Notes: generated from the letters alone by a model not told the origin. DNA of 64,000 nt from SAR202 cluster bacterium (GCA_016872515.1 VGZR01000001.1:167322-231321); one strand, 5' to 3'; shown: positions 3,073 through 60,840, counted from the stretch's first letter. Program-made: numbers and translations.

Positions 3073-3888
3073 TTATCCGAAGAGAGGATAGCCGTTAGGT
3101 CCTCCTCCCCCTTGAGGGGGGAGGACCTTTGGGCCGACCAGTCGGCCGAAAGGGGTGGGGGTGAATCCACATCCTGCGGGCAGAGTGTTTTTCTGCCACG
3201 CTAGCCCCACCGCCTTCGTCAGGAACTCCATGAACGGCGATGCCGTCCGGCACGCCGCCGCGTACTGCTCCATGAACTCGTCCGAGCACGCATCACCCAT
3301 GCCGAACTCCACCGTTGTCACGAAGTCCTTCCGCTTGAGGTCCTCGATGAAGGGATGGTTCGGGTCGAACCCCTTGGGTGACCGCGACACCGACTCGCCC
3401 CAGAACGAGTGCGCCGCCTTGAACGCTCGGCCCGAGATGGCCTTCTTCCACACCTCCGGCTTGGCCGCTATGGCCTCGCGGATGCGCAGCAGGGTAGGGC
3501 CGTCCGGCTGCCAGATGCCCGTCCCGCACATCACGTTCATCGGCTCCAGGTGGAGGTAGAATCCAGGCGTGTGCACGTCCCCCGTCGCATCGTGGCGGAA
3601 GTGCGCCGCCGCGTGCGTCTTATAGGGAGTCTTGTCCTTGGCGAACCGCGTGTCGCGGTAGATGCGGAACATCGAGCCGCCCACCGGCCTCGGGTCCGCC
3701 ACGAAGTGAGGGCTGATCTTCCTCAGCGGCCCCTGGAAGTCCTCGATGAACGCCAGCAGCGGCTGCTTCACGTCCCGCTCATACCGTTCCTTATTCGCGT
3801 TGAACCACGTCCGGTCGTTATTCATCGCCAGCTCCGCCAGGAACTGGAACAACTCTTTCCCGAAATACACCCTCTTTGCCATGGTCAT
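3073..3888 (-). CDS. DUF2461 (TIGR02453) family protein with repeat-encoded C-terminal tail
   Basis: MTMAKRVYFGKELFQFL...FRIYRDTRFAKDKTPYKTH. The start ATG at 3886-3888 overlaps the thiolase stop (ATGA). The last 30-35 codons read through repeat 3098-3168. Confidence 0.8.
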   Translation of the reverse strand: MTMAKRVYFGKELFQFLAELAMNNDRTWFNANKERYERDVKQPLLAFIEDFQGPLRKISPHFVADPRPVGGSMFRIYRDTRFAKDKTPYKTHAAAHFRHDATGDVHTPGFYLHLEPMNVMCGTGIWQPDGPTLLRIREAIAAKPEVWKKAISGRAFKAAHSFWGESVSRSPKGFDPNHPFIEDLKRKDFVTTVEFGMGDACSDEFMEQYAAACRTASPFMEFLTKAVGLAWQKNTLPAGCGFTPTPFGRLVGPKVLPPQGGGGPNGYPLFG

Positions 3889-5069
3889 CCTCGCTCGAAG
3901 ATCGTCGCCACGCCTTGGCCGCCGCCCACGCACATCGTGACCAAACCCGTGTTCAGGCCGCGTCGCTCCATCTCCTCCATCAGCTTCACCACCATGATGG
4001 CGCCCGTCGCCCCGACGGGATGGCCCAGACTGATGCCGCTCCCGTTCACGTTCGTCTTCTCCATGTCCAGGTCGAGCTGCCGGATGCACGCCAGCGCCTG
4101 CGCCGCGAACGCCTCGTTCAACTCGATGAGGTCGATGTCCTCGATAGTCATCCCTGCCTTCTGCAGCGCCATCCGCGTCGCCGGCACCGGCCCGATGCCC
4201 ATGTAGGCCGGGTCCACGCCCGCGACGGCCCGGGCCCGCCACCGCAGCCGCGGCCTGATGCCTAACTCCTTCGCCTTCTCCTCCGACATGATGACCACCG
4301 CCGCCGCACCGTCGTTGATGGTCGAGGCGTTGCCCGCCGTCACCGTGCCCCCCTCCTTGAACACCGGCGGCAGCTGCGCCAGCCGCTCCAGCGTCGTGTC
4401 CCCGCGCGGCCCCTCGTCCGCCGACACCGCCACCGGCGGCCCTTTGCGCTGCGCCACCTGCACCGGCACGGTCTGGCCCGCGAACCGGCCCTCCTTCATC
4501 GCCACCGAAGCCCGTTGCTGGCTCAGCAGCGCCAGCTCGTCCTGGTCATGCCTGCTCACCTCATACCGCGCCGCCACGTTCTCCGCCGTCACCCCCATGT
4601 GGTAGCGGTTCACGGGACACCCCAACCCCTGCACCAGCCCGTCCGCCAGCGCCGCATCGCCCAACCGCAGCCCGTCGAACCGCGCCTTGTAGTCGAGCAC
4701 GAACGGCGTCTGGCTCATGTTCTCCGTCCCGCCGGCCACCAAGATGTCCGCCTCACCCGTCTGCACCAGCATCGCCGCGAAGTTGATGGCCTCCAGCCCC
4801 GACGAGCACTGCCGGTTGATAGCCACCGTCGGCACCGACTCCGGGATGCCCGCCCGCAGCGCCGCCCGGCGCGCCGCATACCCCGCCTCCGTCGCCTGGA
4901 GCGCGTTTCCCAGCACCACCTCGCCCACCGCCTCCCCAGTGATCTGCGCCCGCTCCATCGCCGCCCGCAGGGCCACCGCACTCAACTCCGCAGCCGACAC
5001 GTCTTTGAACGCGCCCCCGAACCGGCCCACCGGCGTTCTCGCCCCGCCTACGATCACTGCGTCGCGCAT
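3885..5069 (-). CDS. acetyl-CoA C-acetyltransferase (thiolase)
   Basis: MRDAVIVGGARTPVGRFGG, NRQCSSGLEA, NEAFAAQ, GHPVGATG and CVGGGQG motifs. ATG at 5067-5069 is preceded by AAGGAGGG. Confidence 0.9.
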   Translation of the reverse strand: MRDAVIVGGARTPVGRFGGAFKDVSAAELSAVALRAAMERAQITGEAVGEVVLGNALQATEAGYAARRAALRAGIPESVPTVAINRQCSSGLEAINFAAMLVQTGEADILVAGGTENMSQTPFVLDYKARFDGLRLGDAALADGLVQGLGCPVNRYHMGVTAENVAARYEVSRHDQDELALLSQQRASVAMKEGRFAGQTVPVQVAQRKGPPVAVSADEGPRGDTTLERLAQLPPVFKEGGTVTAGNASTINDGAAAVVIMSEEKAKELGIRPRLRWRARAVAGVDPAYMGIGPVPATRMALQKAGMTIEDIDLIELNEAFAAQALACIRQLDLDMEKTNVNGSGISLGHPVGATGAIMVVKLMEEMERRGLNTGLVTMCVGGGQGVATIFERG

Positions 5070-5221
5070 AGCTCCCTCCTTCGTCAGCCCGCCGTCAGGC
5101 CTCGCGGCCCCACAGACGCGCCGATTGTAACACATGCGCCAACTCCGCACTCCGCCTTCCGCCGCGGCCCATCCGCCTTCCCAGACCTTCAGCCCATCCG
5201 TTGGAATCAGTCCAAAAACCC

Positions 5222-5250
5222 TTGACACCCAAAGGGGGGTGTGATAGTTT
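5222..5250 (+). promoter_or_regulatory. sigma-70-like promoter candidate upstream of the small membrane protein and act genes
   Basis: TTGACA (5222-5227), 17 nt spacer, TAGTTT (5245-5250). Confidence 0.4.
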
Positions 5251-5348
5251 TCGACAGTCCTACTGGCTCGGTGCCCTGGGTATCTGACCATCCTTGCGTG
5301 AGGCCGTCCGTGGATCCGAACGCGCTCACACCTGCTGAATGGAAAGAG

Positions 5349-6258: not shown

Positions 6259-6262
6259 AAAC

Positions 6263-8533
6263 ATGAAACTTACACGGCGACAATTCCTAGGGTTGGTGGG
6301 CGGAGGCGGCGCCGCGGCCGTCATCTTTCAGGCCTGCGGTGTCCCCGAAGCCGAACTCTTCGTCGAGTCCACCAACCAGATACCTGAAGACCTCGTCTCC
6401 GGCCTCGACAACTGGTACGCCACCTTGTGCCGCCAGTGCCCTTCCACCGAGGGCATCGTCGTCCGCGTCATGGAAGGCCGCGCCAAGAAGGTCGAAGGCA
6501 ATGTTGACTTCCCTGTCAACCAGGGCAAACACAGCGCCCGCTGCGAGGCCGGCCTCCAGGCCCTCTACCATCCCGACCGCATAGCCGGCCCCCTCGTTCG
6601 CACCGGCGAGCGTGGCGGCGGCCAGTGGGAAGAGGTCAGCTGGCCCGACGCCCTCGGCCGCTTGGCTCAGCAGCTGCGCGGCCTCCGCGACCCTGCGGCG
6701 CTCGTCATGGTCACCTCGCCTGAGAACTCCTACTCCGGTCTCGTCGCCGACCGCTTTGTCACCCGCTTCGGAGGACAGCGCCTCCGCTATGAGACCTTGG
6801 AGTCCACCAATGTTCGCCGTGCCGTCAAGCTCGTGTACGGCCAGGACAGGATGCCCGACTTCGACATCGAAAACTCGGCCTACATCCTCTCCTTCGGCGC
6901 CGACTTCCTCAATACCTGGGGTTCGCCCGTCCGCCACGCGCGCGGATACGGCCAGTTCCGTCAGGGCGACCGTGAACGCGGCACCCACGTCCACGTGGAC
7001 AGCCGTTTCTCCATGACCGGCGCAAGCGCCGATGAGATCTTCTTCGTCAAACCAGGCCGCGAGGGCCTCCTTGCCCTCAGCATCGCCTCCGTCATTATCG
7101 AGGATGGCATGGGCAACACGGCCGCGGCTGATGCTCTCACCGACGGCGGCCGCATAGACATGGGCCGGTTCGCCCCAGACCGCGTCGCCGATGCCGTCGG
7201 CGTCAGCGCCGACCGCATCCACTCCCTTGCCCACGAGTTTGCTGAACATCGCCCCGGCATCGCCATCGGTGGCGGCTCCGCTGCGGCCCACACCAACGGC
7301 CTCTTCAATATGATTGCCATTTACTCTCTCAACCACCTCGTCAACGCCGTCGGCGTTCCCGGTGGCGTTATGTTCAACCCACAGCCGCCCATCCGTGACC
7401 TGCCCGCAGTATCCACCGTGAGCAGCTTCGCCGACTGGCAGAAACTTGCGGGTCAGATGCGCAATGGCGGAGTTGGCGTCCTCATGGTCCGCGACGCCGA
7501 CCCGATGTATGGCCTCCCCGGCGCCACCGGCTTCCGCGACGCCAGCTTCAACGTCCCTGTCATCGTCAGTTTCTCCAACCGCATGGACGACACCACTGCC
7601 TTGGCCGATATCGTCCTGCCCGAGCACAGCTACCTTGAGGACTGGGACATCGCGGTCCCCGACCACGGCCCCGGCTACCAGACCGTCGGCTTCCAGCAGC
7701 CCGTCATCCGGCCCTTCTTCGAGTCGCGCGGCGCTCACCTAGGTACCAGAAGCTTCGCCGATGCCATCATGACTCTGGCCGCAGATCTTGGCCTTGACCT
7801 CGGCCTGCCCGCGACATTCGCCGAGATGCTCCAGGACGGCGCAGCCCAACTCCACGGAGAGGGCCGCGGCTCCGTCACCGCCACCGACTTCCGCGCCTTC
7901 TGGAACGGCGCGCTGCAGCGTGGCGGCTGGTGGGACGCCAACGCGCGCTCGGCCGAAGCCGCCGTTAGACCTCCAGCCCTTCCGGCCCAGGAGGAAGCCC
8001 CTCAGTTCGACGGTAGCGGCACCTTCCATCTGATCCCCTTCGCCTCCGCCTCCCTCATGGATGGCCGGGGCGCGTCCCTCCCCTGGCTCCAGGCCACCCC
8101 CGACCCCATCTCCTCTGCCACTTGGCGCACCTGGGTCGAGATCAACGCTAAGGTCGCCGAGGAGATGGACATCCGCGAGGGCGACCTCGTCCGCATCGTC
8201 TCCTCCTTCGGCAACCCGGATGCCTCCAGCGCCGAAGGTATCGAAGCCCTGGCCTACCCTCACCCGGGTGTGCCGCCCGACGTGGTCTGCGTCCCCCTGG
8301 GGCAAGGCCACCGCGGTGGTACCCGTTACGAGAAAGGCCGCGGCTCCAATATCATGTCCATCCTGGCCCCGCGCGCCGACACCCAGACCGGCGCCCTCGC
8401 ATGGGCCGCCACGCGCGTCAGCATCCAGAAGACCGGCGGCTGGGTCCGCCTGCCCAAGTTCGAGAACACCGTTCCCGACTTCCCGCGCGACGAGGAACAG
8501 GAGGTCATCAAGATTACCCCAACCGACACATAG
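6263..8533 (+). CDS. actB1: ACIII subunit ActB1, molybdopterin-oxidoreductase-like domain with Tat signal
   Basis: MKLTRRQFLGLVGGGGAAAV twin-arginine signal on a 756 aa molybdopterin-oxidoreductase-like ORF. It is followed by an FeS subunit and NrfD-like subunits. Confidence 0.8.
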   Translation: MKLTRRQFLGLVGGGGAAAVIFQACGVPEAELFVESTNQIPEDLVSGLDNWYATLCRQCPSTEGIVVRVMEGRAKKVEGNVDFPVNQGKHSARCEAGLQALYHPDRIAGPLVRTGERGGGQWEEVSWPDALGRLAQQLRGLRDPAALVMVTSPENSYSGLVADRFVTRFGGQRLRYETLESTNVRRAVKLVYGQDRMPDFDIENSAYILSFGADFLNTWGSPVRHARGYGQFRQGDRERGTHVHVDSRFSMTGASADEIFFVKPGREGLLALSIASVIIEDGMGNTAAADALTDGGRIDMGRFAPDRVADAVGVSADRIHSLAHEFAEHRPGIAIGGGSAAAHTNGLFNMIAIYSLNHLVNAVGVPGGVMFNPQPPIRDLPAVSTVSSFADWQKLAGQMRNGGVGVLMVRDADPMYGLPGATGFRDASFNVPVIVSFSNRMDDTTALADIVLPEHSYLEDWDIAVPDHGPGYQTVGFQQPVIRPFFESRGAHLGTRSFADAIMTLAADLGLDLGLPATFAEMLQDGAAQLHGEGRGSVTATDFRAFWNGALQRGGWWDANARSAEAAVRPPALPAQEEAPQFDGSGTFHLIPFASASLMDGRGASLPWLQATPDPISSATWRTWVEINAKVAEEMDIREGDLVRIVSSFGNPDASSAEGIEALAYPHPGVPPDVVCVPLGQGHRGGTRYEKGRGSNIMSILAPRADTQTGALAWAATRVSIQKTGGWVRLPKFENTVPDFPRDEEQEVIKITPTDT

Positions 8534-8539: not shown

Positions 8540-8627
8540 CAGGGGTAGGGAAACCTCCTCTCCCCTTGCGGGGGGAGGACCTTCGGGCCGATTTGGTCGG
8601 CCCGAAGTGGTAGGGGTGAGTCTCACC
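8540..8627. repeat. mosaic repeat, A-B-T unit between actB1 and actB2
   Basis: CCTCCTCTCCCC-TTGC-GGGGGGAGGACC, then CTTCGGGCCGA-TTTG-GTCGGCCCGAAG, then GGTAGGGGTGA. Confidence 0.85.
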
Positions 8628-9441: not shown

Positions 9442-10834
9442 CAACGGCCACAGCGCCCACGAGGGCCAGGCCGCGCTGGCGACGGCCGCAGCCGTCCAGC
9501 AAAACCTGCAGCAGCGGCATGAGAAGTCCGGGAACATGTTCCGGCTGGCCGTGCTGTTTTCTGCTGGCCTCCTCGTCCTCGGCGTCATCGGCTTCATCCT
9601 CCGGATAGCCGACGGCGTCTCCGACACCGCGATGTGGGGTTACTACGCCGCCGCCTTCGCCTTCGTTCTCAGCACAGCCGTGGCCGCGCCCATGGTCGCC
9701 ATCGCCCCGCGCATCGCCAAGGCCCACTGGCGCCGCCCCATCTCCCGCATCGCCGAACTATTCGGCATCGTCGGCATCTTCAACCTCCTCCTGTTCATCC
9801 CGCTCATCTGGGTGCTGCCGCCGCTGGACAACGGCCGCCGGACCCTGTGGTTCTTCGATATGGTGGGGGAGCCAGTACCGAACTACTCGCCCCATATCTG
9901 GGCCACCCTCGCCATCCTCGCCCTCGCTGCCGTCGGCGTCATGCTCTTGTGGGTCTCGGCGCTGCCCGACTTCGCCGCCCTTCGCGACCGCACCACCGGC
10001 CGCAAGCAGAAGATGTACGCCTGGCTCGCCCGCGGCTGGTACGGCACTACCCAGCAATGGCACATGCAAAAGCACCGGCTGGGCATCCTCGGTGCCTTCT
10101 ATTTCATGATGTTCATCTTCGTCCACTTCCTCATCACTGTGGACTTCCTCATGGCCCTCGTCCCCGGCTGGATAGATGCCCTCTATCCCGTCACCCACGC
10201 CGCCAGCGCCCTCCAGGCCGGCGCAGCCTCCGTCATCATCGTCATGGTCATCCTCCGTCAGTGGGGCGGCTACAAGGAGTACATCGGCCTCGACCAGTTC
10301 TGGGGCCTCGGCAAGCTCCTCTTCGCCCTCTCCCTTCTGTGGATCTGGTTCTGGTTCTCCAGCTTCAACATCTTCTGGTTCGGCAGGAAGCCGAACGAGA
10401 TTTCTGTGCTGGAGCTGTTCATCAAAGGCCCCTACCTACCTCTCTTCTACGCCGTCTTCGTCTTGAGCTTTGCATTCCCGCTCTTCTTCATGATTTGGAA
10501 CCCCATCCGCAAGAGCATCTGGGGGCCGACCGTTCTCGCTGTCGGTGTGCTCATAGGCATCTTCCTTGATCGCATTAGGATGTACGTCGCTGGCTACTCC
10601 GTTGCCGACCAGTCCCCGCTCCACGCGATGGACCACGTTCCGGTAGCCAACAAGCCCGACATCGCCGACATCTTCATCCTTTTCGGCGCCATCGGCGGCT
10701 CCATCTTGATTTACCTGCTGGCCAGCCGCCTTATCCCCATCGTCAGCATCTGGGAGCAGAAAGAACTGCTCCTGTATAAACTCCACAAGCCCTTCCACCG
10801 CACCCACGTCAGGGTGATGGGCAAGCCCGATTAG
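9434..10834 (+). CDS. actC: ACIII subunit ActC, NrfD/PsrC-like polytopic membrane protein
   Basis: 466 aa multi-TM ORF. It overlaps the end of actB2 by 8 nt. Assigned by position in the cluster. Confidence 0.75.
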
Positions 10835-15508: not shown

Positions 15509-15564
15509 GCTTCTTCTTGACGGAAGAAGTCTCTACTGCCCTTCCCAGGACCCTGTGAGAAGAC
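15509..15564. repeat. family-F repeat copy (GAAGAAGTC hairpin plus CCCTT..GAAGAC tail)
   Basis: CTTCTTC-TTGACG-GAAGAAG hairpin followed by TCTCTACTGCCCTTCCCAGGACCCTGTGAGAAGAC. It resembles 44740-44794 and 48480-48535. Confidence 0.45.
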
Positions 15565-15600
15565 AATGGGGGCGGGCCTGAAAAAGGCCCGCCCCCATTG
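15564..15600. terminator. GC-rich hairpin between the convergent HpcH aldolase and dtxR-like genes
   Basis: CAATGGGGGCGGGCC-TGAAAAA-GGCCCGCCCCCATTG (15 bp stem). There is no clear U-tract on either strand. Confidence 0.45.
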
Positions 15601-15692
15601 TCGTACTATGAAGTCTTTCTGGATAGGTATGGAGAACATCTTTCTGCCCAGAAAGATGTTCTCATGGGACGGGTGGTTGGGGGCGTGGGGCG

Positions 15693-16421: not shown

Positions 16422-16485
16422 GGTAGTCTTGGTGCGTTCGAGGGTAGCACGCCGCCTTCTGCCCGGTCAACGCGCGAGCGACTTC

Positions 16486-16542
16486 ACTCCTCTCCCCTTG
16501 CGGAAGAGGCCCTCGATGAAATCAGGGGCAGGGGGTAGTCCC
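16486..16542. repeat. mosaic repeat, A'-D unit
   Basis: CCTCTCCCCTTGCGGAAGAGG plus CCCTCGATGAAATCAGGGGCAGGGGGTAG. Compare 34306-34358. Confidence 0.7.
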
Positions 16543-17694: not shown

Positions 17695-19752
17695 ATGTCC
17701 GATAAGTCCGTCTTGGAAAAGATTCGCAATATCGGCTACATCGCCCACATAGACGCCGGTAAGACGACCGTCACCGAGCGCACCCTCTTTTTCGCCGGCC
17801 GCATCTACAAGATCGGCAACGTGGACGAAGGCACGACCGTTACCGACTATATGGCCCAGGAGCGCGAGCGCGGCATCACCATCAAGGCCGCCGCCACCGC
17901 CGCCGAATGGCGCGGCTATACCATCAACATCATAGACACCCCGGGCCACGTGGACTTCACCGCCGAGGTCGAGCGCAGCCTGCGCGTTCTCGACGGCGGC
18001 GTCGTCGTCTTCGACGCCGAAGCGGGCGTCCAGCCCCAGTCCGAGACCGTCTGGCGCCAGGCCGACCGCTACAACGTCCCGCGCATCTGCTTCGTCAACA
18101 AGATGGACCGCATCGGCGCCAGCCTCCAGCGCACCCTAGACAGCATCGTCCACCGCCTCGGCGCCAACCCCGTCGCCATCCAGATACCCGTCGGACAGGA
18201 AGACAAGTTCCGCGGCATCATTGACCTCATCGATGAGAAAGCCTACATCTACCCCACCAGCACCGCCGAGTCTCCGGTCGAAGGCCCCGTCCCCCCGGAG
18301 TTTCAGGAAGAGTTCAAAAAGTACCGCGCCAAGATGGTGGAGAAGATAGCCGAGACCGACGACCTCCTCATGGTCAAGTACCTGGAAGAGAAAGAGATTG
18401 CCAAAGAAGAGCTCCGCGCCGCCCTGCGCAAGGCCACCATCGGGTACCGCCTCGTCCCCGTCGTCTGCGGCTCGGCCCTGCGCCACCGCGGCGTCCAGCC
18501 CCTCCTTGACGCCATCGTCCACTATCTGCCCTCACCCTTGGACAAGCCGCCCATCAAAGCTAAGGCCCCCGGCACCGGCGCCGAAGTCATCCGCACCGCC
18601 GACGTCGCCTCGCCCTTCGCGGCCCTCGTCTTCAAGGTCATCGGCGACCCCTACATCGGGCGCCTTGCGTTCTTCCGCGTCTACTCCGGAACCGTCAAGA
18701 CCGGCGCAATGGTGCTCAACGCGACAACCGGCAAACGCGAGCGCTTGGGCCGTATCGTCAAGATGCATGCCCAGCACCGCGAAGAGGTCGCCCAGGTCGA
18801 GGCGGGCGACATCGCCGCCGCCGTTGGCCTCAAGAACGCCACCACAGGCGACACCATCTGCGACGAGAACGACCCCGTCGTCCTCGAGTCCATCAAGTTT
18901 CCCGAGCCGGTCGTCTCCCTCGCCGTAGAACCCAAGTCCCGCGCCGACCAGGACAAGCTGGCCGACTCCCTCAACAAGCTCTCCGATGAAGACCCCACCC
19001 TCAAGGTCGCCTTCGACTCCGAGGTCGGCCAGACCATCATCTCCGGCATGGGTGAGCTTCACCTTGAAATCATCATTGACCGCATGAAGCGCGAGCACAA
19101 GGTTGAGGCCAACGTCGGCAGACCCAAGGTCGCCTACCGCGAGGCCATCCGCGCGCCCGCCAAGGGCGAGGGCCGGTTGGTCCGCCAGACCGGCGGCCAC
19201 GGCCAGTATGGTCACGCCGTCATCGAGATCGAGCCGCTGCCTCGCGGCGAAGGTTTCGTCTTCGAGGACAAGGTCAAGGGCGGCGCGATCCCGCGCCAGT
19301 TCATCAACCCCGTCAAGGAAGGCGTCAAGGAGGCCCTTGCCACCGGCCCCGTCGGCGGCTACCCAGTCATGGACGTCAAAGTGACCCTCGTTGACGGTAG
19401 CTACCACGATGTGGACTCCTCGGAGATGGCCTTCAAGGTCGCGGGCTCCATGGCGATGAAAGATGCGATGGCCAGAGCCAAGGGCGTCCTCCTTGAGCCC
19501 ATCATGCAGCTCGAGCTGATCACCCCTGGCGAGTTCCTAGGCGACGTCCTCGGCGACCTCGGTCGCCGCCGCGCCCAGATAAAGAACATCGAAGGCCAGG
19601 GCGAAACCCAGGTCGTCCGCGCCATGGTCCCCCTTGGCGAGAGCTTCGGCTACGCCGGCACCATCCGCTCCCTCAGCCAAGGCCGCGCTGCCTACTCCAT
19701 GGAGTTTGCCCAGTTCGAGGAGGCCCCGGCCTCCGTCCTGGCTCAACGATAG
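17695..19752 (+). CDS. fusA: elongation factor G
   Basis: [17 protein letters not shown] and NKMD G-motifs. ATG 17695 was preferred over the upstream in-frame codon at 17656. Confidence 0.95.
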
Positions 19753-19761
19753 GACGCATGC

Positions 19762-20085
19762 ATGACCACCAAACAGCAACAGCACCAGAAGATTCGCATC
19801 ATCCTCAAGGCCTTCGACCACAGGCTCCTCGACCAGTCCGCCGTCCAGATCGTCGAGGCCGCCGAGCGCACGGGCGCCCAGGTCGCCGGCCCCGTCCCGC
19901 TGCCGACCACCATGAAGCGCTTCTGTGTGCTGCGGTCCCCCCACATAGACAAGGACTCCCGCGAGCACTTCGAGCTGCGCACCCATAACCGCCTCATAGA
20001 CATCCTGGAGCCCACCTCTAAGACCATCGACTCCCTCACCCGGCTCAACGTTCCCGCCGGCGTGGACATCTCCATCAAGCTGTGA
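19762..20085 (+). CDS. rpsJ: 30S ribosomal protein S10
   Basis: [18 protein letters not shown]. It starts 9 nt after the fusA stop. Confidence 0.95.
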
Positions 20086-41330: not shown

Positions 41331-41466
41331 ACCCTCTCCCCCTTGACGGGGGAGGGCCGAGGTAGGGGTGAAGTCGGTTTTCGCGGACGTTTCACCCCCC
41401 ATCCCTACGCGCCCCGACGCATTTGGGCGCGTAGGCCTCCCCCCTCCCTCGAAGGGGGAAGGAAAG
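41331..41466. repeat. mosaic repeat, A-T unit and an inverted T-B-A unit (tail to tail)
   Basis: CCCTCTCCCCC-TTGAC-GGGGGAGGG..GGTAGGGGTGAAGTC. After a 15 nt gap comes TTCACCCCCCATCC-CTACGCGCCC..GGGCGCGTAG-GCCTCCCCCCTCCC-TCGA-AGGGGGAAGG. Confidence 0.85.
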
Positions 41467-41565
41467 AAACAGCCTCCCCGCGAGTTGACCCACCCCGCGA
41501 TGTGGACGGCGGCCGCCCGTGTGCTACACTTTCGGCGCCTTGAAGGGGTGTAGGAGAGCGGTCGC

Positions 41566-42728: not shown

Positions 42729-42774
42729 TTCACCCCCACCTCAATCCTCCCCTCTCGAGGGGGAGGAAGATTGC
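42729..42774. repeat. mosaic repeat, T-A unit
   Basis: TTCACCCCCACCTCAATCCTCCCCTC-TCGA-GGGGGAGGAAG. Confidence 0.8.
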
Positions 42775-43079: not shown

Positions 43080-43268
43080 TTTCACCCTCACCCCTTCGAC
43101 AGGCTCAGGGCAAACTCTTTGGTCCGCCTGCAGCGGACCAAAGGCCTCTCCCTTCAAGGGAGAGGAGGTTGAACGTCACCCCCATCCTTCGGCTGCGCTC
43201 AGTACAGGCTCTTAGTTCTCCCCTCCTTCGACAGGCTCAGGACAAGCTCTCGAGGGGGAGGAGAGTTT
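43080..43268. repeat. mosaic repeat cluster between the small protein and the amidase
   Basis: TTTCACCCTCACC-CCTTCGACAGGCTCAGGGCAAACTC-TTTGGTCCGC..GCGGACCAAAG-GCCTCTCCC-TTCA-AGGGAGAGGAGG. Then TCACCCCCATCC..., then CCTTCGACAGGCTCAGGACAAGCTC-TCGA-GGGGGAGGAG. Confidence 0.85.
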
Positions 43269-44739: not shown

Positions 44740-44794
44740 GGGGAACTCCTTTTGTCAAAAAGAAGTCCCGCAGACCCCTCAAGAAAACTTGGAG
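44740..44794. repeat. family-F repeat copy
   Basis: GGGGAACTCCTTTT-GTCA-AAAAGAAGTCCC plus GCAGACCCCTCAAGAAAACTTGGAG. Compare 48480-48535. Confidence 0.6.
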
Positions 44795-44795: not shown

Positions 44796-44840
44796 ATGAG
44801 CAGCGGGGTGGGCCGCTCGACGGCCCACCCCGCTGCTCAT
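44796..44840. terminator. long perfect hairpin between the convergent amidase and VOC genes
   Basis: ATGAGCAGCGGGGTGGGCCG-CTCGA-CGGCCCACCCCGCTGCTCAT (20 bp stem), followed by ATTTCG. Confidence 0.5.
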
Positions 44841-45343: not shown

Positions 45344-45410
45344 TCTCACCCCTACCTCTTCGGCCCGCAGCGTGCCGAAGGTCTTCCCTCCTCAAGGGGG
45401 AGGAGGAAGA
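45344..45410. repeat. mosaic repeat, T-B-A unit
   Basis: TCTCACCCCTACC-TCTTCGGC..GCCGAAGG-TCTTCCCTCC-TCAA-GGGGGAGGAGGAAG. Confidence 0.85.
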
Positions 45411-45522: not shown

Positions 45523-45678
45523 AGAGACAAGGTGGTGGTGGATGACAGCTTACGGGGCGTCTCTAGAAAGGAGGGTTTCAGAATTGGATAGTACGCGTAG
45601 GGGGTGTCTCAGGTAGGTGTTCCTTGAGGCACCTTCCCTGTCATGGGCCCCGCCGAAAGGCGGGGCCCATTTGTTTTG
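45523..45678 (+). ncRNA. candidate small RNA (unclassified), bounded by a promoter and an intrinsic terminator
   Basis: About 155 nt between the TATAAT box and the terminator at 45643-45678. The only ATG-initiated reading frame is 24 codons. The 5' GACAAGGUG can pair with the 3' CACCUUCCCUGUC. No SRP, tRNA or tmRNA motifs seen. Confidence 0.45.
45643..45678 (+). terminator. intrinsic terminator
   Basis: ATGGGCCCCGCC-GAAA-GGCGGGGCCCAT followed by TTGTTTTG. Confidence 0.7.
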
Positions 45679-45715: not shown

Positions 45716-45849
45716 TTCTCCGTGTTGCTCAGGACAAGTTTCACCCCCACCTCTTTGGGCCGACTAGGTCGGCCCAAAGTTTCCTTCGCTTCGCTCAAGG
45801 ACAGGCTCTCCCCCCTCGAGGGGGAGGAGGAAGAACGCCCTCACCCCCT
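45716..45849. repeat. mosaic repeat cluster (E, T-B, E, A, T)
   Basis: TTCACCCCCACC-TCTTTGGGCCGAC-TAG-GTCGGCCCAAAG...CTCAAGGACAGGCTCTCCCCCC-TCGA-GGGGGAGGAGG...CCCTCACCCCC. Confidence 0.85.
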
Positions 45850-47324: not shown

Positions 47325-47463
47325 ATCCCCTCACCCTATGAGCCGCTAGAGGCGGCTCATAGGCCTCTCCCACAAGGGGCGAGGGGATTCGACGCCCTCA
47401 CCCCTACGGTCCTTCCGCGGAAGGGCCGTAGGCCCTCCCCCGTGGACGGGGGAGGGGTGGTGC
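47325..47463. repeat. mosaic repeat, two tandem T-B-A units
   Basis: CCCCTCACC-CTATGAGCCGC-TAGA-GGCGGCTCATAG-GCCTCTCCC-ACAA-GGGGCGAGGGG. Then CCCTCACCC-CTACGGTCCTTCCGCGGAAGGGCCGTAG-GCCCTCCCCCGT-GGAC-GGGGGAGGGG. Confidence 0.9.
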
Positions 47464-48428: not shown

Positions 48429-48479
48429 GGTGGGCCTCCTTCAGGCAGAGTTACGGCAATAACGTGAGGGAAGCACCCT

Positions 48480-48535
48480 GGGGGACTTCTTCTAGGCAGA
48501 AGAAGTCCCCCAGACCCTTCAAGAAGACTTCAGAG
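48480..48535. repeat. family-F repeat copy with perfect 14 bp hairpin
   Basis: GGGGGACTTCTTCT-AGGC-AGAAGAAGTCCCCC plus AGACCCTTCAAGAAGACTTCAGAG. Confidence 0.6.
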
Positions 48536-48575
48536 TTTTTTGGGTTCTACCGGATTCAATTCTCCCACGATTACA

Positions 48576-48762
48576 ACCCCTCACGCTTTGGCCCCGCTTG
48601 TATCGGGCCAAAGGCCTCTCCCGCAAGGGGAGAGGAGGTGAATCCACCCCTACCCCTTTGGGCCGACCAAGTCGGCCCAAAGTTTCCTTCCCCTTCGCCC
48701 TGCTCAGGGTCAAGGACAGGCTCCCCCCCCTCAAGGGGGAGGAGGAAATCACACCTACCCCC
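48576..48762. repeat. mosaic repeat cluster (T-B-A', T-B, E, A, T)
   Basis: CCCCTCACG-CTTTGGCCCCG..CGGGCCAAAG-GCCTCTCCC-GCAA-GGGGAGAGGAGG. Then CCACCCCTACC-CCTTTGGGCCGAC-CAA-GTCGGCCCAAAG. Then ...GGACAGGCTCCCCCCCC-TCAA-GGGGGAGGAGG. Confidence 0.9.
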
Positions 48763-50083: not shown

Positions 50084-50152
50084 GTACCCCCTACCTCTAT
50101 GGGCCGACCTAGTCGGCCCATAGGTCCTCCCCCTCAGGGGGGGAGGAGGAAA
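50084..50152. repeat. mosaic repeat, T-B-A unit
   Basis: TACCCCCTACC-TCTATGGGCCGAC-CTA-GTCGGCCCATAG-GTCCTCCCCC-TCA-GGGGGGGAGGAGG. Confidence 0.9.
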
Positions 50153-51290: not shown

Positions 51291-51446
51291 TTACCCCTCA
51301 CCCGCTGACCCTTCCTCGAGGAAGGGTCAGCGACCTCTCCCACAAGGGGAAGGGGACGGTTTTACCCCATCCTTCATACCTCTCACCCTTTGGCCCCGAC
51401 CCGGTCGGGGCCAAAGGCCTCTCCCGCAAGGGAAGAGGAGGATACC
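51291..51446. repeat. mosaic repeat, two tandem T-B-A' units
   Basis: TTACCCCTCACCC-GCTGACCCTTCC-TCGA-GGAAGGGTCAGC-GACCTCTCCC-ACAA-GGGGAAGGGG. Then CTCTCACC-CTTTGGCCCCGAC-CC-GGTCGGGGCCAAAG-GCCTCTCCC-GCAA-GGGAAGAGGAGG. Confidence 0.9.
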
Positions 51447-53177: not shown

Positions 53178-53297
53178 TCCTCACCCTTTGACGTTCGGCG
53201 AGGCTATGCTCCACCCCCACCTCTTCAGCCCCGCTGCCAGCAGGGCTGAAGGTCCCCCCCCGCCTCAAGGGGGAGGAGGGGGAAACGCCCCACCCCC
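53178..53297. repeat. mosaic repeat cluster in the 5' leader of the ThDP-enzyme gene
   Basis: TTCCTCACCC..., then CTCCACCCCCACC-TCTTCAGCCC..GGGCTGAAGG-TCCCCCCCCGCC-TCAA-GGGGGAGGAGGGGG...CCCCACCCCC. Confidence 0.85.
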
Positions 53298-53435: not shown

Positions 53436-55227
53436 CTACCTAAGGCGGTGTTTCGGTCGAGACACGCGGTAAGCGATGAACGCGGCGAAAGCCAAGCTGG
53501 GTCCGAGGAGCGCCCATGCACCCGACGTGGGAACCGGTGGTGGAGCAGGGCCCGAAGTCACAAGGAAAGAGTAGCTGTAAGTCGTCTGGTTACCAGCCTC
53601 ATCCTGTGCCATGAAGCTGAGGGTATGGCTTCCCGGTGAAAGACCGGATAAGGTGTGCCTATAGATGACGCCGTCTGTTGAGGTCAAGGCGCCTGTTATG
53701 TCGTTTCCGTCCAGGGTGACCGAGAGCGCGGTAACCGTTCCATGGGTATCGTAGTCGGTCACGACATTGCCAGGAACAGTAGTATGCACGCCAGAACTAT
53801 CTAACCCATACTCAAGCCCTTCATTGGAGAAATCCACGGTGGTGGTTGCCATACCAGCGGTAGTGGTGACCGTGAATGTTGGGGCTGGTAGGCCCGTGTC
53901 AACCTCGAAGAGGACGGCCTAGGTCAGGTCGAGCGCAGTGCTGGTGGAGATTGCGAGCCCGGCCTTGCCGATGTTGATAGCGCTATTGAGGTCAGTTGCC
54001 TGAGCATTGACGTTGTACAAGCCAGAAGCCGTTGGAGTGCTTGTGGCGAGGAAGACTTTCGGGCCCCCGGTCAGGGACAGGAACGTTGTGGACGTGGAGA
54101 AATTACGGGTGTTGTCCAAGACCTGTACTACCCCAAGAGAGACCGTACCGGAGGCAACATTCTCGTCGGCCTTCAGCCTGATGGGCACCGAGCCGTTCGT
54201 TACAGGTGCGGATGCTGGAACCTACGGCACGGGTCAGCCCTGGCGCGATGCCGTCGGTGGACGGGTCTTTCGCGTGTGGGGTGAACAACTCGTTGCCGAT
54301 GAGGTCTTTGACGATGGCGAGCGCGCCGATGCCTACCACTTCAACCTTTGGTCTTGCATCTGGGACCAGCGCTGCTACGGTGAGGAACACGGACTGGGGT
54401 CTGCCTGGAAAGTGTTCAGCCGCCGAGGGGACGACGCCCGCGACGCGGAAGTCTGTGGGGGCGACTGTAGTGCCATCTATCGCTTCGTTGAAATCAACGC
54501 GGATGCTTGTGCCCTTCGCTTTAGCGGGGTCAAACTCGGTCTTGTCATCAGTTGTCTTGGAGGTGTCCCACCACGTGCCGGTCGTCGCGGCCGCGAGAAA
54601 GGGCCCTGAACGGTCAATGACGATGGCGTGAGGTTGGCAGCCGAGCACGCTGGCGGAGTTGGACGGGACCATGCCTATGAGTGAAGTGGCCACGAACGAG
54701 ACTGCGTCGCAAGGGTTGGCAGCACCGGAGATGGTTGGCTCCCGGTCGGCGACGCCGATGTTCCCCGCGAGGTCGGTGGCCTTGAACCACCAGTACACGA
54801 TCTGGTCAGTAGTCAAAGTGGGGCCGAACCGTTGGCGGATGTTGTAGCCGTTGGTGATAGCAGTGATATCGGCGGCAGCTACATTCTCAATGGTTACCTG
54901 GTCGATGTCGCCGTCAAAATCTACATCTCGGCCCCACAGCACCGTGATGTTGGAGCTGTAAATGCCGGAGTCGATGTCTGTCATGTCGGCCTGCACCGTG
55001 GGTTGAAGTACAGTGGAGCGGGTGTTGTGGGCCGGGCTGAAGTTGGAGATAGTTGGCGCCAACGTCTCAGCAGCGAAGACCTCGTGGGAGATTAATGGTG
55101 CGGTGGCAACAATGAGAACACCAACAAGAGATCCAAGAAGTCCCAGGCGCTCGCTTCTATGCGACGGGCCATGCGCGCGAGGGGCGCGGATGCGCCATCC
55201 ACCTTTGGAGGCGGTTAACCTTGGCAT
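53436..55227 (-). pseudogene. cell-surface protein S2 (SbsA-type Ig-like domains, C-terminal PAPPPVP..GAWAL-TM-basic tail), disrupted by one frameshift and one in-frame TAG
   Basis: ATG 55227 with signal peptide (LGLLGSLVGVLIVATAPLISHEVFA). ORFs 54103-55350, 53919-54188 and 53436-53852 are collinear pieces. ORFs 53919-54188 and 53436-53852 share one frame separated only by TAG 53919-53921. The frame changes between 54106 and 54221. ATDLAGN and AQDEAGN motifs. Confidence 0.55.
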
Positions 55228-55250
55228 GGGACTCCCCAACCGACGCCCCA

Positions 55251-55278
55251 ATTGTAGGGATGGGCAGGGAGGTGTCAA
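55251..55278 (-). promoter_or_regulatory. consensus-like promoter cassette, copy 2 (drives surface protein S2)
   Basis: Minus strand reads TTGACA (55278-55273), 16 nt spacer, TACAAT (55256-55251). The GGGGAG SD and ATG 55227 follow about 24 nt downstream. Confidence 0.6.
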
Positions 55279-56645
55279 GGACGGGGTATACGTGTCATCC
55301 GCCGGAGGGCGAGCGTGGAAAAGAGGATGCCCAGGACAGCTAACGCCCAACTGCCGAGGAATGGCACAGGAGGGGGAGCAGGGGCAGGTAGTCCCTGCTT
55401 GTAGGTGAGGGTGAAGTGAGTGCCGTCGTTGCCGCCGAGGACGCCGTCGCCATGGTCGGTGAGGCAGCGGATGGTGATGATGCCGTTGGCGCCATCAACA
55501 CTTTCGACCTGCAAAGTAGAGGAACTGGAAATCACATCTTGGTAACTGACTACTCCATCGCTGTTTCTGTCCAGGATTGGGGGTGTGACTGGCGTGGATG
55601 AGGTGACGACCGCGCCGGTGGATGGGGTGTATCGGTCTATCCTTATACTGGAATTGGTAGAGCATTCAGCGTAGGCGTTGAGGACGATTTCTATGCTGGG
55701 AACGGGTGTGATGTTGGTGTGGGTGTTGGCGTTGCTGTTGGGCTAGCGGAAGGATTAACGAGGATAGTCGCGGTTCGAGTGATGGGAGCGGCTGAAGAGC
55801 CGTCTACGTAGGAAAGTGTCACGGCATCGACAGAGTTGACCCTGAGGTCGCCTGCTGACCAAGTGCCGTTCGCAGTTAGGGTAATGTCCGGCGGGGTCGT
55901 CGTCGTTTCGCTGATGCTGCAGAAGAACGAGGAGACGAGGCAGCGAAAGGTGCTGGTAGTGGACGCGCTTGAGTTGAGGAACACAGCGCCTCGAAACACG
56001 CCACTGTTCGCCGTCGTTTTTTCGTGACGGACAAGGACACCCGTTGGGTCTGCGTCGCTGACGACTTTGACTGAACCCAGCCCTGTGACCGCGGCTGAGG
56101 TGTCCACTACACCTTTCCGATAGCTCAAATGGATGGTGTCACCATCTGCCGTTAGGTGGTTCTTGTCGTCGGTGCCATGGGTACCGAGGCAACGGATCGT
56201 CATAACTCCATTCGTGCCATCGACCGAGAGGATGGCTAGCCCCAGGGCGGCCAAGTCCTCGGTGGCGACTACGTCGTTATGGCTAGTAATCCCATCCTCA
56301 TTTCGGTCCACGATTGGTGGGCTGACGGGGGCGCTGGAAGTTGCGAAGGACACACCGCTGGCGGTACTGGTGATGCCGGTAAACCTATCCACGGTGACGT
56401 TTTCGTTGGAGCCGCATTCGAGGTAAACGAGTATCGAGGTGTCCTCCGCTACATTCAAATCAGCGTCGGTCGCTTCGAGCACGAGTCGGCCCCCCTGCAC
56501 AGCCGCAGAAAGGGTCTGCGATGGGTCATCGGGGTTTGGGGAAGCGCAACACTGCATTGGCGCTGAACGCCGTGCGAACTGCGAAAAGCCCTAGGGCAAA
56601 GCAAGCGCTGAGCACTATGGCCAGGAGGACCGTCCGTCTGCTCAT
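55275..56645 (-). pseudogene. cell-surface protein S1 (two copies of an about 105 aa domain, same C-terminal tail as S2), disrupted by two frameshifts
   Basis: ATG 56645 with signal peptide MSRRTVLLAIVLSACFALGLFAVRTAFSANA. The frame changes within 56529-56590 and again within 55694-55742. The tail is PAPAPPPVPFLGSWALAVLGILFSTLALRRMTR. Confidence 0.5.
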
Positions 56646-58115: not shown

Positions 58116-58258
58116 GGGACCCCTTCGGTCCCCTCACCCTTTGGCCCCGAGCATTCGGGGCCAAAGGCCTCTCCCGCAAGGGGAGAGGAGGAAAGTCGCC
58201 CCCTCACCCTACACGCCGACCAGGTCGGTGTGTAGGCCTTCTCCCGTGATGGGGGGGC
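58116..58258. repeat. mosaic repeat, two tandem T-B-A units
   Basis: CCCCTCACC-CTTTGGCCCCGA-GCA-TTCGGGGCCAAAG-GCCTCTCCC-GCAA-GGGGAGAGGAGG. Then CCCCCTCACC-CTACACGCCGAC-CA-GGTCGGTGTGTAG-GCCTTCTCCC-GTGAT-GGGGGGG. Confidence 0.9.
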
Positions 58259-58262
58259 AACG

Positions 58263-59054: not shown

Positions 59055-59062
59055 GACTTAAC

Positions 59063-59120
59063 TTTCACCCCCCCCCCGATCCACATCGGGGCCCCTCCCT
59101 CACGGGATGGAAGCGGGGGA
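59063..59120. repeat. degenerate mosaic repeat
   Basis: TTTCACCCCCCCC-CCGAT-CCAC-ATCGGGG-CCCCTCCCTCACGGGATGGAAGCGGGGG. Confidence 0.5.
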
Positions 59121-59128
59121 CAGCTGGG

Positions 59129-59899
59129 CTACTGGGCGGTCATGCCGCCGTCGATGACGAGCTCGGACCCGGTGATGTAGGAGGACTCGTCGGAAGCGAG
59201 GAAGAGGATGCCGTCGGCGACCTCCTCAGGCTTTCCCCATCTTGCCATGGGGACCTTGGCAGTGTAGAGAGCGAGTTTATCGGGGTCTTCTTGGAGGCGA
59301 TGGGTCATGGGGGTGATGCAGAAGCCTGGGTGGATGGAGTTGGCGCGGATGTTGTCCTTGGCGTACTGGATGGCCGTGGCCTTGGTGAAGATGCGGATGG
59401 CGCCCTTGGCGGCATGGTAGGCTGCGGAGGTCTGGCTGCCGACGAGTCCGTAGATAGAGGAGATGTTGACGATGGAGCCGCCGCCGACCTTGCGCATCTC
59501 GGGGATGGCGTGCTTGGTGCCAAGGAAGGTGCCTTTGGCGTGGACGTCCATCTCGTGGTTCCAGATGTCCAGGGTAGCCTGTTCGACGGTGTTCATGTAG
59601 CCCTGGCCGGCGTTGTTGACGAGGACGTTGAGTTTGCCGTAGGTCTTGACGGTCTGGGCGATGGCGCGCTTCCACTGCTCCTCGTCGCGCACGTCGAGGG
59701 GGATGAACAGGGCGTCGTAGCCGTGTTCGCGGAGCTGGGTCTCGCTCCGGCGGGCTAGGTCCTCCTTGATGTCGCACAGGACGACCTTGGCGCCTTCGCG
59801 GGCGAACATCCAGGCGGAGGCGCCGCCGAAGCCCATGACCTCTCCTTTGATGCCTGCTGCTGCGCCGGTGATGAGGGCGACCTTTCCTTTGAGACGCAT
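59129..59899 (-). CDS. SDR-family oxidoreductase (copy 2 of 3)
   Basis: ATG 59899 after GAGGAGG. MRLKGKVALITGAAAGIKGEVMGFGGASAW...YHAAKGAI. Confidence 0.85.
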   Translation of the reverse strand: MRLKGKVALITGAAAGIKGEVMGFGGASAWMFAREGAKVVLCDIKEDLARRSETQLREHGYDALFIPLDVRDEEQWKRAIAQTVKTYGKLNVLVNNAGQGYMNTVEQATLDIWNHEMDVHAKGTFLGTKHAIPEMRKVGGGSIVNISSIYGLVGSQTSAAYHAAKGAIRIFTKATAIQYAKDNIRANSIHPGFCITPMTHRLQEDPDKLALYTAKVPMARWGKPEEVADGILFLASDESSYITGSELVIDGGMTAQ

Positions 59900-59921
59900 G
59901 GCTTGCCTCCTCATGTTGGGA

Positions 59922-60725
59922 CTACTGTGCGATAACGCCGCCGTCGATGACGAGCTCGGCGCCGGTGACGTACGAGGACTCGTCGGAGGCGAGGAAGAGG
60001 ATGCCGAAGGCGATCTCCTCGGCCTTGGCGAGTCGGCCCAGGGGTACCTTGGGCAGGCGCGGGTCGGGTATGCCGGCTGCGGCGAGTTTGGCGATGCCCT
60101 GGCGTGCGAGAGGAGTATCGGTGTAGCCGGGGTGGACGGAGTTGACACGAATGTTCTCTTTGGCGTACTGGATGGCGGCGGCCTTGGAGAAGATACGGCT
60201 GGCGCCTTTGCCGGTTGAGTAGGCGATGCCGAGGGGGTTGCCGTTGATGCCGTCTATAGAGGAGATGTTGACGATGGAGCCGCCGCGGTTCTTGCGCATG
60301 GCGGGGATGGCGTGTTTAGTGCCGAGGAAGACGGCCTTGGCGTGGACGTCCATCTGGGCGTCCCACTTGTCCACGGGGGTATCTTCGGCGCCTCCGATGA
60401 AGGTGGTGCCGGCGGCGTTGACCAGGATGTCTAGGCGGCCGAACTTGGAGGTCGCGAAGCTTACGGCGCCTATCCAGTCGGCCTCGTTGGTGGCATCCAA
60501 ACGCACGAACTCGGCCCGGCCTCCGGCGTTCCGAAGCTGCTGGGCGGCTTTCTTTCCTTTGTCTTCGTCGAGGTCTCCCAGGACGACGGCAGCGCCTTCG
60601 CGGACGAAGAGCCAAGCAGCAGCGCCGCCGATGCCCAACACCCAGTCTTTGCCTTCGGAGCGGGGGTCTCCTTTGAAGGCGGTGGCTCCACCGGAGATGA
60701 GGGAGACTTTTCCTTTCAGGCGCAT
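59922..60725 (-). CDS. SDR-family oxidoreductase (copy 3 of 3)
   Basis: MRLKGKVSLISGGATAFKGDPRSEGKDWVLGIGGAAAW...YSTGKGAS. Confidence 0.85.
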   Translation of the reverse strand: MRLKGKVSLISGGATAFKGDPRSEGKDWVLGIGGAAAWLFVREGAAVVLGDLDEDKGKKAAQQLRNAGGRAEFVRLDATNEADWIGAVSFATSKFGRLDILVNAAGTTFIGGAEDTPVDKWDAQMDVHAKAVFLGTKHAIPAMRKNRGGSIVNISSIDGINGNPLGIAYSTGKGASRIFSKAAAIQYAKENIRVNSVHPGYTDTPLARQGIAKLAAAGIPDPRLPKVPLGRLAKAEEIAFGILFLASDESSYVTGAELVIDGGVIAQ

Positions 60726-60771
60726 GGCATACCTCTTATTAAGAGCAAGGCTGTTTCAGGACCCACTTTGC

Positions 60772-60840
60772 TCTTCACCCCTACCTCTTTGAGCCGACCT
60801 AGTCGGCTCAAAGGTCATCCCCCTCAAGGGGGAGGAGCAA
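60772..60840. repeat. mosaic repeat, T-B-A unit
   Basis: CTTCACCCCTACC-TCTTTGAGCCGAC-CTA-GTCGGCTCAAAG-GTCATCCCCC-TCAA-GGGGGAGGAG. Confidence 0.9.

Follow-up and report, generated by a model that had tools for sequence, protein, structure and literature searches.

The repetitive extragenic palindromic (REP) sequences catalogued as GTAG and CGTC families, the REP-associated tyrosine transposases (RAYTs) and the insertion sequences (IS) of the IS200/IS605 family are the nearest published counterparts of a repeat family that we characterized in a 64,000-nucleotide stretch of DNA from a SAR202 cluster bacterium (GCA_016872515.1, VGZR01000001.1:167322-231321; hereafter the window); no published description of the family itself was found. 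Its unit is ~65 nt long and, on the strand that reads T, B, A from 5' to 3' (the T-B-A strand), consists of an unpaired C-rich box (T), a palindrome (B) and a hairpin (A). We interpret these as lineage-specific, non-autonomous double-hairpin repeats resembling REPs and bacterial interspersed mosaic elements (BIMEs). The family is probably undescribed until now, and its notable aspects are a strict strand polarity, a hypervariable yet always-paired hairpin and an in-frame presence in truA.

With the GTAG superfamily, its REPs, BIMEs, REP doublets forming hairpins (REPINs) and RAYTs, the units share short GC-rich intergenic palindromes in high copy (PMC3733652, PMC6006769). They likewise form subfamilies with compensatory stem changes, occur in clusters and in mosaics with other motifs, lie occasionally in frame within genes, lack a target duplication and, in a related organism at least (L120), stand in inverted pairs. 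A REP palindrome spans 20–40 nt with a stem of 5–13 bp or longer, a range that includes B (22–31 nt, stem 8–15 bp). REPs of the GTAG superfamily also carry a GT[AG]G tetranucleotide, not base-paired, 0–2 nt 5' of the hairpin foot (PMC6006769). Here the T-B-A strand has ..C[TC]ACCT or ..CTCAC before B, and the opposite strand has GGAC or GAGG. GTAG or GTGG is confined to the complementary strand of type I units, where it lies 3' of the hairpin, apart from a few units that carry it inside the stem; the C[TC]AC that type I units carry 5' of B is the mirror of the canonical REP tag. The units further differ from REPs and BIMEs in their two hairpins with flanking C-rich boxes, in being mostly single or head-to-tail rather than inverted dimers, and in their strict GC-skew polarity, and no RAYT gene was seen in the window and 14 kb of flanks. 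Membership in the canonical GTAG REP families or among the miniature inverted-repeat transposable elements (MITEs) is not supported.

BOX elements of Streptococcus pneumoniae are, like the present units, modular intergenic mosaics of short boxes in which the number of middle modules varies; their sequence is unrelated to the units and their host is AT-rich, and we know of no reported coupling of BOX to strand composition. In Thermomicrobium roseum, a member of the Chloroflexi, GTAG-23 repeats are described in the catalogue as nested in small palindromes, CCGSSCC(n3,4)GGSSCGG (PMC3733652). Compared by that description, they share with the units a phylum, a GC-rich genome and a palindrome nested in or beside a small palindrome that is also found alone (compare the T-A units and A), but the sequences differ, and GTAG-23 is recorded there as clustered in a few large blocks whereas the units are dispersed through gaps. 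Minimal, palindrome-associated derivatives of IS200/IS605 and the ends of IS608 and ISDra2 have two subterminal hairpins and outer cleavage or target boxes, for which the units offer candidate counterparts; the lack of a target duplication, strand specificity and replication-tied orientation are also shared (PMC3971601). Unlike those elements, the units have hairpins that abut with nothing between them, one of which is hypervariable, and no parent IS or TnpA was identified. Rickettsia palindromic elements (RPEs), which the catalogue assigns to CGTC-type families (PMC3733652), and intragenic REPs resemble the present family in the in-frame insertion of a peptide, here ~90 residues between the two halves of TruA. 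This is the one clear internal case in 64 kb, and its sequence is unrelated to RPEs.

Architecture and covariation of the repeat units

A hidden Markov model (HMM) built from 19 hand-picked units and a covariance model (R1) built from a hand-checked seed of six sequences found ~37 units or fragments at ~28 loci in the window. They recovered the loci of an initial annotation made from the sequence alone, which had counted about 28, plus a few extra. As that annotation had held, the modules recur, with exact patterns far above chance: the T box (TCACCCCYMCC) has 8 exact matches against 0.29 expected, the B-A junction pattern 5 against 0.00, and the core of a further module, E (GCTCAGGRCARGCTC, up to two mismatches), 12 against 1.07; the A hairpin (CCTCYCCC-N3-6-GGGRGAGG) is present at 12 loci. 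The full-length strings proposed for E and for a fifth module, D, each match exactly once only; the part of E that recurs is its core, and D is a short form of B (34304–34356, with a relative at 16484–16537). The extent of the family had been overstated. Instead of ~2.8 kb and most of the non-coding DNA, the units total 2.53 kb, or 4.0% of the window; the 2.22 kb of this that is not within called genes makes up 27% of the 8.27 kb of non-coding DNA, and the units occupy 25 of the 43 gaps of at least 40 nt rather than almost every gap. Missing from the initial annotation were the strand polarity, a T-like box on the 3' side, units without B, and copies located within coding frames (in truA and at the 3' end of a DUF2461 gene), while the translated peptides SPARGEE and PLKGGGG that it listed are found.

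The T box is 10–12 nt long. B has a conserved foot (CYTWYG...CRWAG) and an almost free interior, and the conserved A hairpin reads CCTCYCCC, a 4–5-nt loop and GGGRGAGG, then AGGAR, ending in GGAGGAR. Conservation ends 2–3 nt before T and immediately past GGAGGAR. Type I units read TCACCCCTACCT / CTTTGGGCCGAC-nnn-GTCGGCCCAAAG / GTCCTCCCCC..., type II units CCCCTCAC / CCTTTGGCCCC... / CCTCTCCCGCAAGGGGAGAGGAGG, and type III units, seen in co-occurring contigs of 62–64% G+C, AGCCCTCAC / CCTTTGGGY-CAAAGC-RCCCAAAGG / CCTCTCCCTCGGGGAGAGGAGGGAAC. B is optional, seven units in the window being T-A only, and E may lie between T and B, between B and A, or within the A loop. Of 51 units, 32 have a T-like box in the first 30 nt on the 3' side, usually 7–15 nt past hairpin A, and 28 of these boxes are not the T box of the next unit; on the 5' side such a box accompanies only 9 of 51 units, and reverse-complement controls give 7–10 of 51. 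The full architecture is therefore T-B-A-T. One tail-to-tail inverted pair is present in the window (41331–41467), as previously noted, and the remaining units are single or head-to-tail, the direct tandems at 47325–47461, 51292–51443 and 58128–58260 also bearing out the earlier description.

Structural conservation was assessed in 56 units, drawn from the window plus 21 further loci, in an alignment fitted to the covariance model, a procedure that favours the structure. Standard pairs fill 95.4% of cells, compared with 77.6% in column shuffles and 49–63% when partners are slid by 1–3 columns. Changes on both sides of a pair occupy 177 cells against 41.5 expected, and covariation is seen in 18 of the 21 pairs, among them all 13 in B. 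An anchor-free tabulation gives the same picture, with 46 distinct B arms among 51 units and 549 of 586 stem positions (94%) Watson–Crick. Thus the structure is conserved while the sequence varies. An earlier RNAalifold run on a MAFFT alignment, in which MAFFT placed no gaps in the loops, returned four pairs only and was superseded by the covariance model. Folded as single-stranded DNA, either strand forms two hairpins of ~-25 kcal/mol (z -5 to -6) with T unpaired. Mismatches in the B stem comprise 10 G.T and 10 C.A, and since they are equal, with no G.U-compatible excess, neither strand is favoured as RNA. Weak complementarity also links T with the 3' arm of A. The longest word common to the two flanks of a unit has a mean length of 4.48 nt, and that of mismatched flanks 4.23 nt; this comparison revealed no unit-specific target-site duplication.

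Orientation, turnover and distribution of the units

All units up to 36.6 kb read A-B-T on the plus strand, and all units from 41.39 kb read T-B-A. Left of 37.6 kb, 15/15 units are on the minus strand, and to the right 20/22 are on the plus strand (Fisher p = 1.5e-8), the exceptions in the window being two weak T-A units at 39.9 and 41.3 kb. The sign of the GC skew changes in the same region. At third codon positions (GC3) the switch is abrupt whichever strand a gene is on: every gene between 1 and 37.7 kb is negative (rpoA -0.25, most others -0.3 to -0.5), and from rplQ (37.74 kb, +0.25) onwards nearly every gene is positive, two being negative, possibly through a frame error. The change from -0.25 to +0.25 in codon-position skew thus falls in the rpoA/rplQ spacer at 37720–37737.

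Across the window and the metagenome loci (20-odd), and with units masked when skew was calculated, 55 units are concordant and 6 discordant with the local GC skew. Scored by locus, ~17 of 20 agree (p = 0.003). In gaps between co-directional genes where transcription and skew predict opposite orientations, skew is right in 10 of 12. The 9-kb extension to the left of the window (L166) adds two concordant units, and a relative at ~88% identity (L170) two more. The T-B-A strand is itself C-rich (skew -0.12) yet is located on the G-rich genomic strand, so the coupling is not a by-product of unit composition. Unit orientation therefore tracks the local GC skew and not transcription.

The usual rule is that the leading strand is G-rich, so that a negative-to-positive flip is origin-like. 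The flip seen here fits an origin poorly, since it lies inside an 18-nt spacer within the conserved alpha operon, and the genes on either side point towards it; no DnaA boxes or dif-like site above chance were found near the switch. All ribosomal-protein operons and ~77% of genes in the window and its left flank are on the C-rich strand. By sign the flip is origin-like, and by gene orientation it is terminus-like. In a more distant relative (L162) the skew likewise turns from negative to positive, a few kb past rpsI. Either the ribosomal-protein operons run head-on to replication, or the lineage has an unusual strand-composition polarity. The puzzle leaves the observed coupling of units to skew intact, and bears on which unit strand is the lagging-strand template. 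A general rule that genes are always on the C-rich strand was not upheld at other loci (~6 versus 5).

Relatives compared at orthologous gaps differ in the presence of units. In the relative with 75% RpoA identity (L162/L163, GCA_027625225.1), gene order from rplE to cinA is the same and 20 kb holds no unit; its gaps measure 0–60 nt, versus 110–265 nt and filled with units in the window. Examples are the rpsM-rpsK gap (31 versus 215 nt), the rpsK-DUF7847 gap (59 versus 222 nt), the rplM-rpsI gap (3 versus 134 nt) and the rpmD-rplO gap (0–5 versus 133 nt). The window truA (38117–39196) encodes 359 aa, versus 274 aa in L162, and the two proteins align on either side of a ~90-residue insert (residues 178–267, nt 38648–38918) that is made of repeat units, is open in frame and lies between two PseudoU_synth_1 halves. 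A closer relative (L161, 90% nucleotide identity) carries repeats at this truA site too, but as a different insert, and its rpsD-rpoA gap holds three units where the window has one unit and an apparent deletion scar. L170 is without the units at 58128/58198 and 60776, and has two weak T-A units in 12 kb. Taken together, L161 and L170, relatives at 88–90% identity, differ from the window in unit content at four gaps. The units are thus dispensable, and are gained and lost on a time scale of ~10% divergence, and the host tolerates them within operons and, in truA, within the frame itself; the initial description of non-autonomous, REP/BIME-like behaviour is a fair one. Density is uneven: the 10 kb preceding the window contains two units, and the 5 kb following it contains none.

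In GTDB, searched with one genome per species, a strict B-A pattern gave 41 single matches, nearly all by chance; the source species is absent from this collection. The sole exception is a Dehalococcoidia metagenome-assembled genome (L018) with related T, E and A modules, and a Thermus match (L013) was rejected as coding-like. Metagenomes yielded more than 111 stretches matching the pattern, many of which came from the same lake sample, and in ~25 of these loci the HMM or the covariance model recognises units. Contigs of 62–64% G+C from this lake sample (L046, L047, L048, L064, L082, L087, L095, L132, L134, L144, L148) carry the type III subfamily, which has a 9-bp B stem and a fixed CAAAGC loop. 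Because its copies are mutually 90–98% identical, they suggest a recent burst in a second SAR202-like organism. The window copies are more diverged, the median best match over all 56 aligned units being 83%. Searches of viral contigs, plasmids and phages returned nothing relevant. Rfam gave no family match at gathering thresholds over the whole window, and a permissive Rfam search gave noise, the best recurring match being whalefall-1 at 17–18 bits against a threshold of 37.

A proposed route of spread and competing explanations

At roughly even odds (about 50%), this is a REP/BIME-like family mobilised as single-stranded DNA at the replication fork by a strand-specific enzyme acting in trans. 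Units would move or multiply as the single-stranded DNA exposed there, cut and rejoined by an enzyme encoded elsewhere; the obvious candidate is an HUH/Y1 transposase such as those of IS200/IS605 elements or the RAYTs. By analogy, the ends and cleavage sites of a minimal IS200/IS605-type element would correspond to the two adjoining hairpins with a T box on either side, and the polarity would record insertion into a single template strand. The spread probably owes something to local processes as well: slippage between T boxes could yield the tandems, and template switching within hairpins probably keeps B perfectly paired despite sequence drift. Y1 transposases, RAYTs included, act on single-stranded DNA (PMC6006769), and IS200/IS605 elements show a replication-linked orientation bias, explained by their need for single-stranded DNA found mainly on the lagging strand (PMC3971601). 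A replication-biased orientation is also seen here in the 55 concordant and 6 discordant units, skew being only a proxy for replication direction. With this orientation precedent, the lack of a target duplication, the 3' T-like box and the balanced G.T and C.A mismatches fit a single-stranded DNA mechanism.

Several observations weigh against such a mechanism. Pfam-based annotation of the window and its flanks revealed no HUH/Y1 gene, and a crude scan for an HUH...Y motif over ~330 kb of related loci, only a small part of a genome, found none. GT[AG]G 0–2 nt 5' of the hairpin is absent on both strands. The T-A units, without B, lack one of the proposed ends. The related organism L120 has inverted tail-to-tail pairs in its hisD-hisC and hisC-hisB gaps (8259–8389 and 9571–9708); this BIME/REPIN-like arrangement departs from the single-orientation rule and makes the polarity less than absolute. 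GC skew conflicts here with gene orientation, which leaves the identity of the lagging-strand template uncertain. Finally, no clean pair of filled and empty sites was found, the intergenic DNA of the 88–90% relatives being too diverged. Two candidates for the enzyme itself were rejected: the L120 open reading frame (ORF) between the inverted pairs, considered as a REPtron, is hisC in a hisD-hisC-hisB operon, and the small ORFs beside the tail-to-tail pair of the window (40472–40744 and 40822–41322) have no Pfam match and no HUH or Y motif.

That the repeats are an assembly artefact or come from chimeric joins has virtually no chance of being true. Several short contigs do terminate at or near units (L003, for example, begins at window position 41207), but positions -8950 to 69114 in window coordinates are matched at 99.9–100% identity by independent JGI, ENA and Logan assemblies from other samples. 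Five assemblies from differing samples and pipelines agree across the repeats at this level, and two long contigs cross the middle of the window, including the skew switch; the repeats are therefore neither artefacts nor chimeras. Cut-and-paste movement of the units as MITEs by a DDE transposase, the other affinity that the initial annotation had proposed, is highly improbable. Small size, non-coding sequence, high copy number and presence/absence polymorphism would suit MITEs, and imperfect terminal inverted repeats might be read into the weak complementarity of T with the 3' arm of A. The flank comparison (4.48 versus 4.23 nt) nevertheless gives no unit-specific target-site duplication, the strong strand polarity is unexpected for an element with symmetric terminal inverted repeats, and the modules combine freely (T-A, T-B-A, T-E-B-A). 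No autonomous element with matching terminal inverted repeats was seen in the sequence examined. It is also very unlikely that the units are cis elements acting as RNA, namely terminators or hairpins that stabilise or process mRNA between genes. They do lie between co-directional genes, and within ribosomal-protein operons transcription has to run through them; their hairpins are very stable, and in published views many REPs act as RNA (PMC3733652). However, orientation follows skew over transcription in 10 of 12 informative contexts, neither strand has an excess of G.U-compatible mismatches, the hairpins have no following U-run, no Rfam family matches, and the syntenic operons of relatives are without units.

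Selection rather than insertion could keep the orientation if the units were polar DNA signals that serve the host and are read by a replication, segregation or nucleoid protein, with a logic comparable to KOPS or Chi polarity or to gyrase or integration host factor (IHF) binding at BIMEs. We consider this unlikely. The near-perfect coupling of orientation to skew with its flip near the skew switch, the G-rich octamers in the A arm and tail, and the covariation-conserved structure are in its favour, but the absence of units from 20 kb of the syntenic relative and the two weak ones in 12 kb of the 88% relative mark them as dispensable, and the very uneven density (two units in 10 kb to the left, none in 5 kb to the right), the copies within reading frames and the L120 inverted pairs do not suit a signal. 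Spread with no dedicated enzyme, by replication slippage, template switching at hairpins and recombination between T boxes, is quite unlikely. Tandem arrays are bounded by T boxes at both ends, diverse perfect palindromes are the expected product of intrastrand template switching, and the rpsD-rpoA gap of the window resembles a deletion derivative of the L161 version. These processes account only for local expansion, loss and palindrome upkeep, not for dispersal to dozens of unrelated gaps and truA, and leave bursts of 90–98% identical copies on different contigs of a co-occurring organism unexplained. There is a comparably slim prospect that the units are more than selfish elements and form a structured replichore-polarity system, or are the footprint of an unrecognised fork-coupled single-stranded DNA enzyme that is not a RAYT, in a host whose strand-composition polarity is itself unusual; either the ribosomal operons would then run head-on from an origin-like switch in the alpha operon, or the leading strand would be C-rich. 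Mobilisation of single-stranded DNA at the fork in trans remains our preferred reading.

Unit inventory, host and significance

On the minus strand, a weak full-length unit at 2519–2586 (R1 25.3 bits, E 5e-4) precedes a type I T-B-A unit at 3099–3164 (covariance model 46.4 bits, HMM 47.9 bits), which lies in the 3' tail of the DUF2461 ORF, whose Pfam domain ends at residue 220 of 269. HMM and covariance model both identify further type I units at 8552–8618, 29532–29598 (rpmD/rplO gap) and 31417–31481 (secY/adk gap). Units with a short D-type B lie at 16484–16537 (covariance model 36.1 bits) and 34304–34356 (51.9 bits), and type II units at 27328–27394 (rpsN/rpsH gap, 80.5 bits) and 34946–35010 (67.2 bits). 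T-A units at 24582–24625, 34241–34294, 34901–34942 and 36548–36591 (rpsD/rpoA gap) were found with the covariance model. With the E-core pattern, the same model identifies a unit with E in the A loop (24634–24717) and a B-A unit in the adk/map gap with E replacing T (32235–32310). A fragment comprising half of A and T (33250–33272) is an HMM match. Beyond the skew switch, the minus strand holds the two skew-discordant T-A units, a weak one in the rplM/rpsI gap (39900–39941; covariance model) and the left half of the tail-to-tail pair (41331–41370; both models).

The plus-strand units begin with the in-frame truA cluster (38648–38918), in which a type II unit (38654–38719) is followed by a T-E-B-T-E-A mosaic, found with the covariance model, and with the T-B-A right half of the tail-to-tail pair (41393–41467; both models). 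The covariance model places a T-A unit at 42730–42771 and, with the E-core pattern, a T-E-B-A unit at 43081–43170; a mosaic of T, two E copies and A (43174–43262) was recognised by the E-core pattern. Type I units lie at 45347–45408 (both models) and, by covariance model, at 50085–50151 (just upstream of the cinA start), 53212–53282 (where the unit inflates the 5' end in some calls of a thiamine pyrophosphate-enzyme ORF) and 60776–60840 (missing at this site in L170). T-B-E-A units are present at 45739–45833 (HMM) and 48645–48747 (both models). Type II units, all covariance-model matches, form the tandems 47325–47389 with 47392–47461, 51292–51359 with 51377–51443, and 58128–58193 with 58198–58260, both members of the last being missing at this site in L170; another type II unit lies at 48575–48640. 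A degenerate unit at 59059–59121 scores 22.9 bits with the same model.

Other structured sequences accompany the units. A second, unrelated repeat, AGAAGTCCCSCAGACCCYTCAAGAARACTT, occurs at 44762–44793 and 48500–48531, adjoining long perfect hairpins (44796–44840 and 48478–48513), and a similar long hairpin fills an L170 gap where the window holds units. Further long terminator-like hairpins lie at 973–1032, 15560–15604, 40431–40460, 45643–45670 and 63386–63417. About 1.7–2.3 kb past the right end of the window (L168, 14850–15470), two similar structured stretches of ~150 nt share ...GAGCCRAAAGCCAGCGGCTCCG..., and a terminator-like hairpin comes after each. They lie in a 950-nt gap separating a gene of the major facilitator superfamily from folE-queC and have no significant Rfam match.

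The window has a G+C content of 64–65%. Proteins identical to its own are encoded on contigs of the Lake Tanganyika metagenomes JGI 3300020214, 3300020200 and 3300020197, and in ENA and Logan assemblies. The nearest RpoA relatives have 91% and 90% identity, the next 75%, and because the named ones among them are labelled 'Chloroflexi bacterium' and 'SAR202 cluster bacterium', the host is placed, by sequence, as an uncultured member of the Chloroflexota near SAR202/Dehalococcoidia. Its genes in the window include an alternative complex III operon, the str, S10, spc and alpha ribosomal-protein operons (16.7–40.4 kb) and numerous CoA-transferase, short-chain dehydrogenase, amidase and enolase-superfamily genes. 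In agreement with the initial annotation, no transposase, integrase or cas gene was found by Pfam-based annotation of the window, nor in the 14 kb beyond its ends (9 kb and 5 kb).

Within the ribosomal-protein region, rpsJ directly follows fusA (19752–19762), with no tuf between the str and S10 operons. The rplE ORF (26104–27087) encodes 327 aa, and its L5 domains begin only at residue 161; this is a 160-residue N-terminal extension or a miscalled start, the JGI call being likewise long at 326 aa, and no repeat units were found in this N-terminal stretch. A gene for a DUF7847 membrane protein (35061–35855) lies between rpsK and rpsD in the alpha operon and is kept in the 91% and 75% relatives. 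The rplM product (39141–39872) has ~240 aa, with a ~90-residue C-terminal tail rich in Ala, Lys and Glu from ~39597; that of the 75% relative has 216 aa. Farther along, a minus-strand region of lower G+C (59%) at 53436–56557 holds ORFs of 138, 33, 293, 79 and 288 aa (JGI calls) with only a weak match to the Ig-like domain Big_13; a surface-protein gene that is decayed or evolving fast may account for it.

The SAR202-like Chloroflexota, an abundant and uncultured group, are poorly annotated, and a model of this family directly improves their annotation: the repeats, ~4% of the present stretch, inflate ORF calls, add peptides to TruA and the DUF2461 protein, and break assemblies. The hypervariable yet always-paired B is a clean case of palindromes that stay perfect while their sequence drifts. 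As a REP-like family with near-complete polarity, the units are a natural test of repeat spread through single-stranded DNA at the fork, and their polarity is a replichore marker, independent of skew, for genomes known only from metagenomes.

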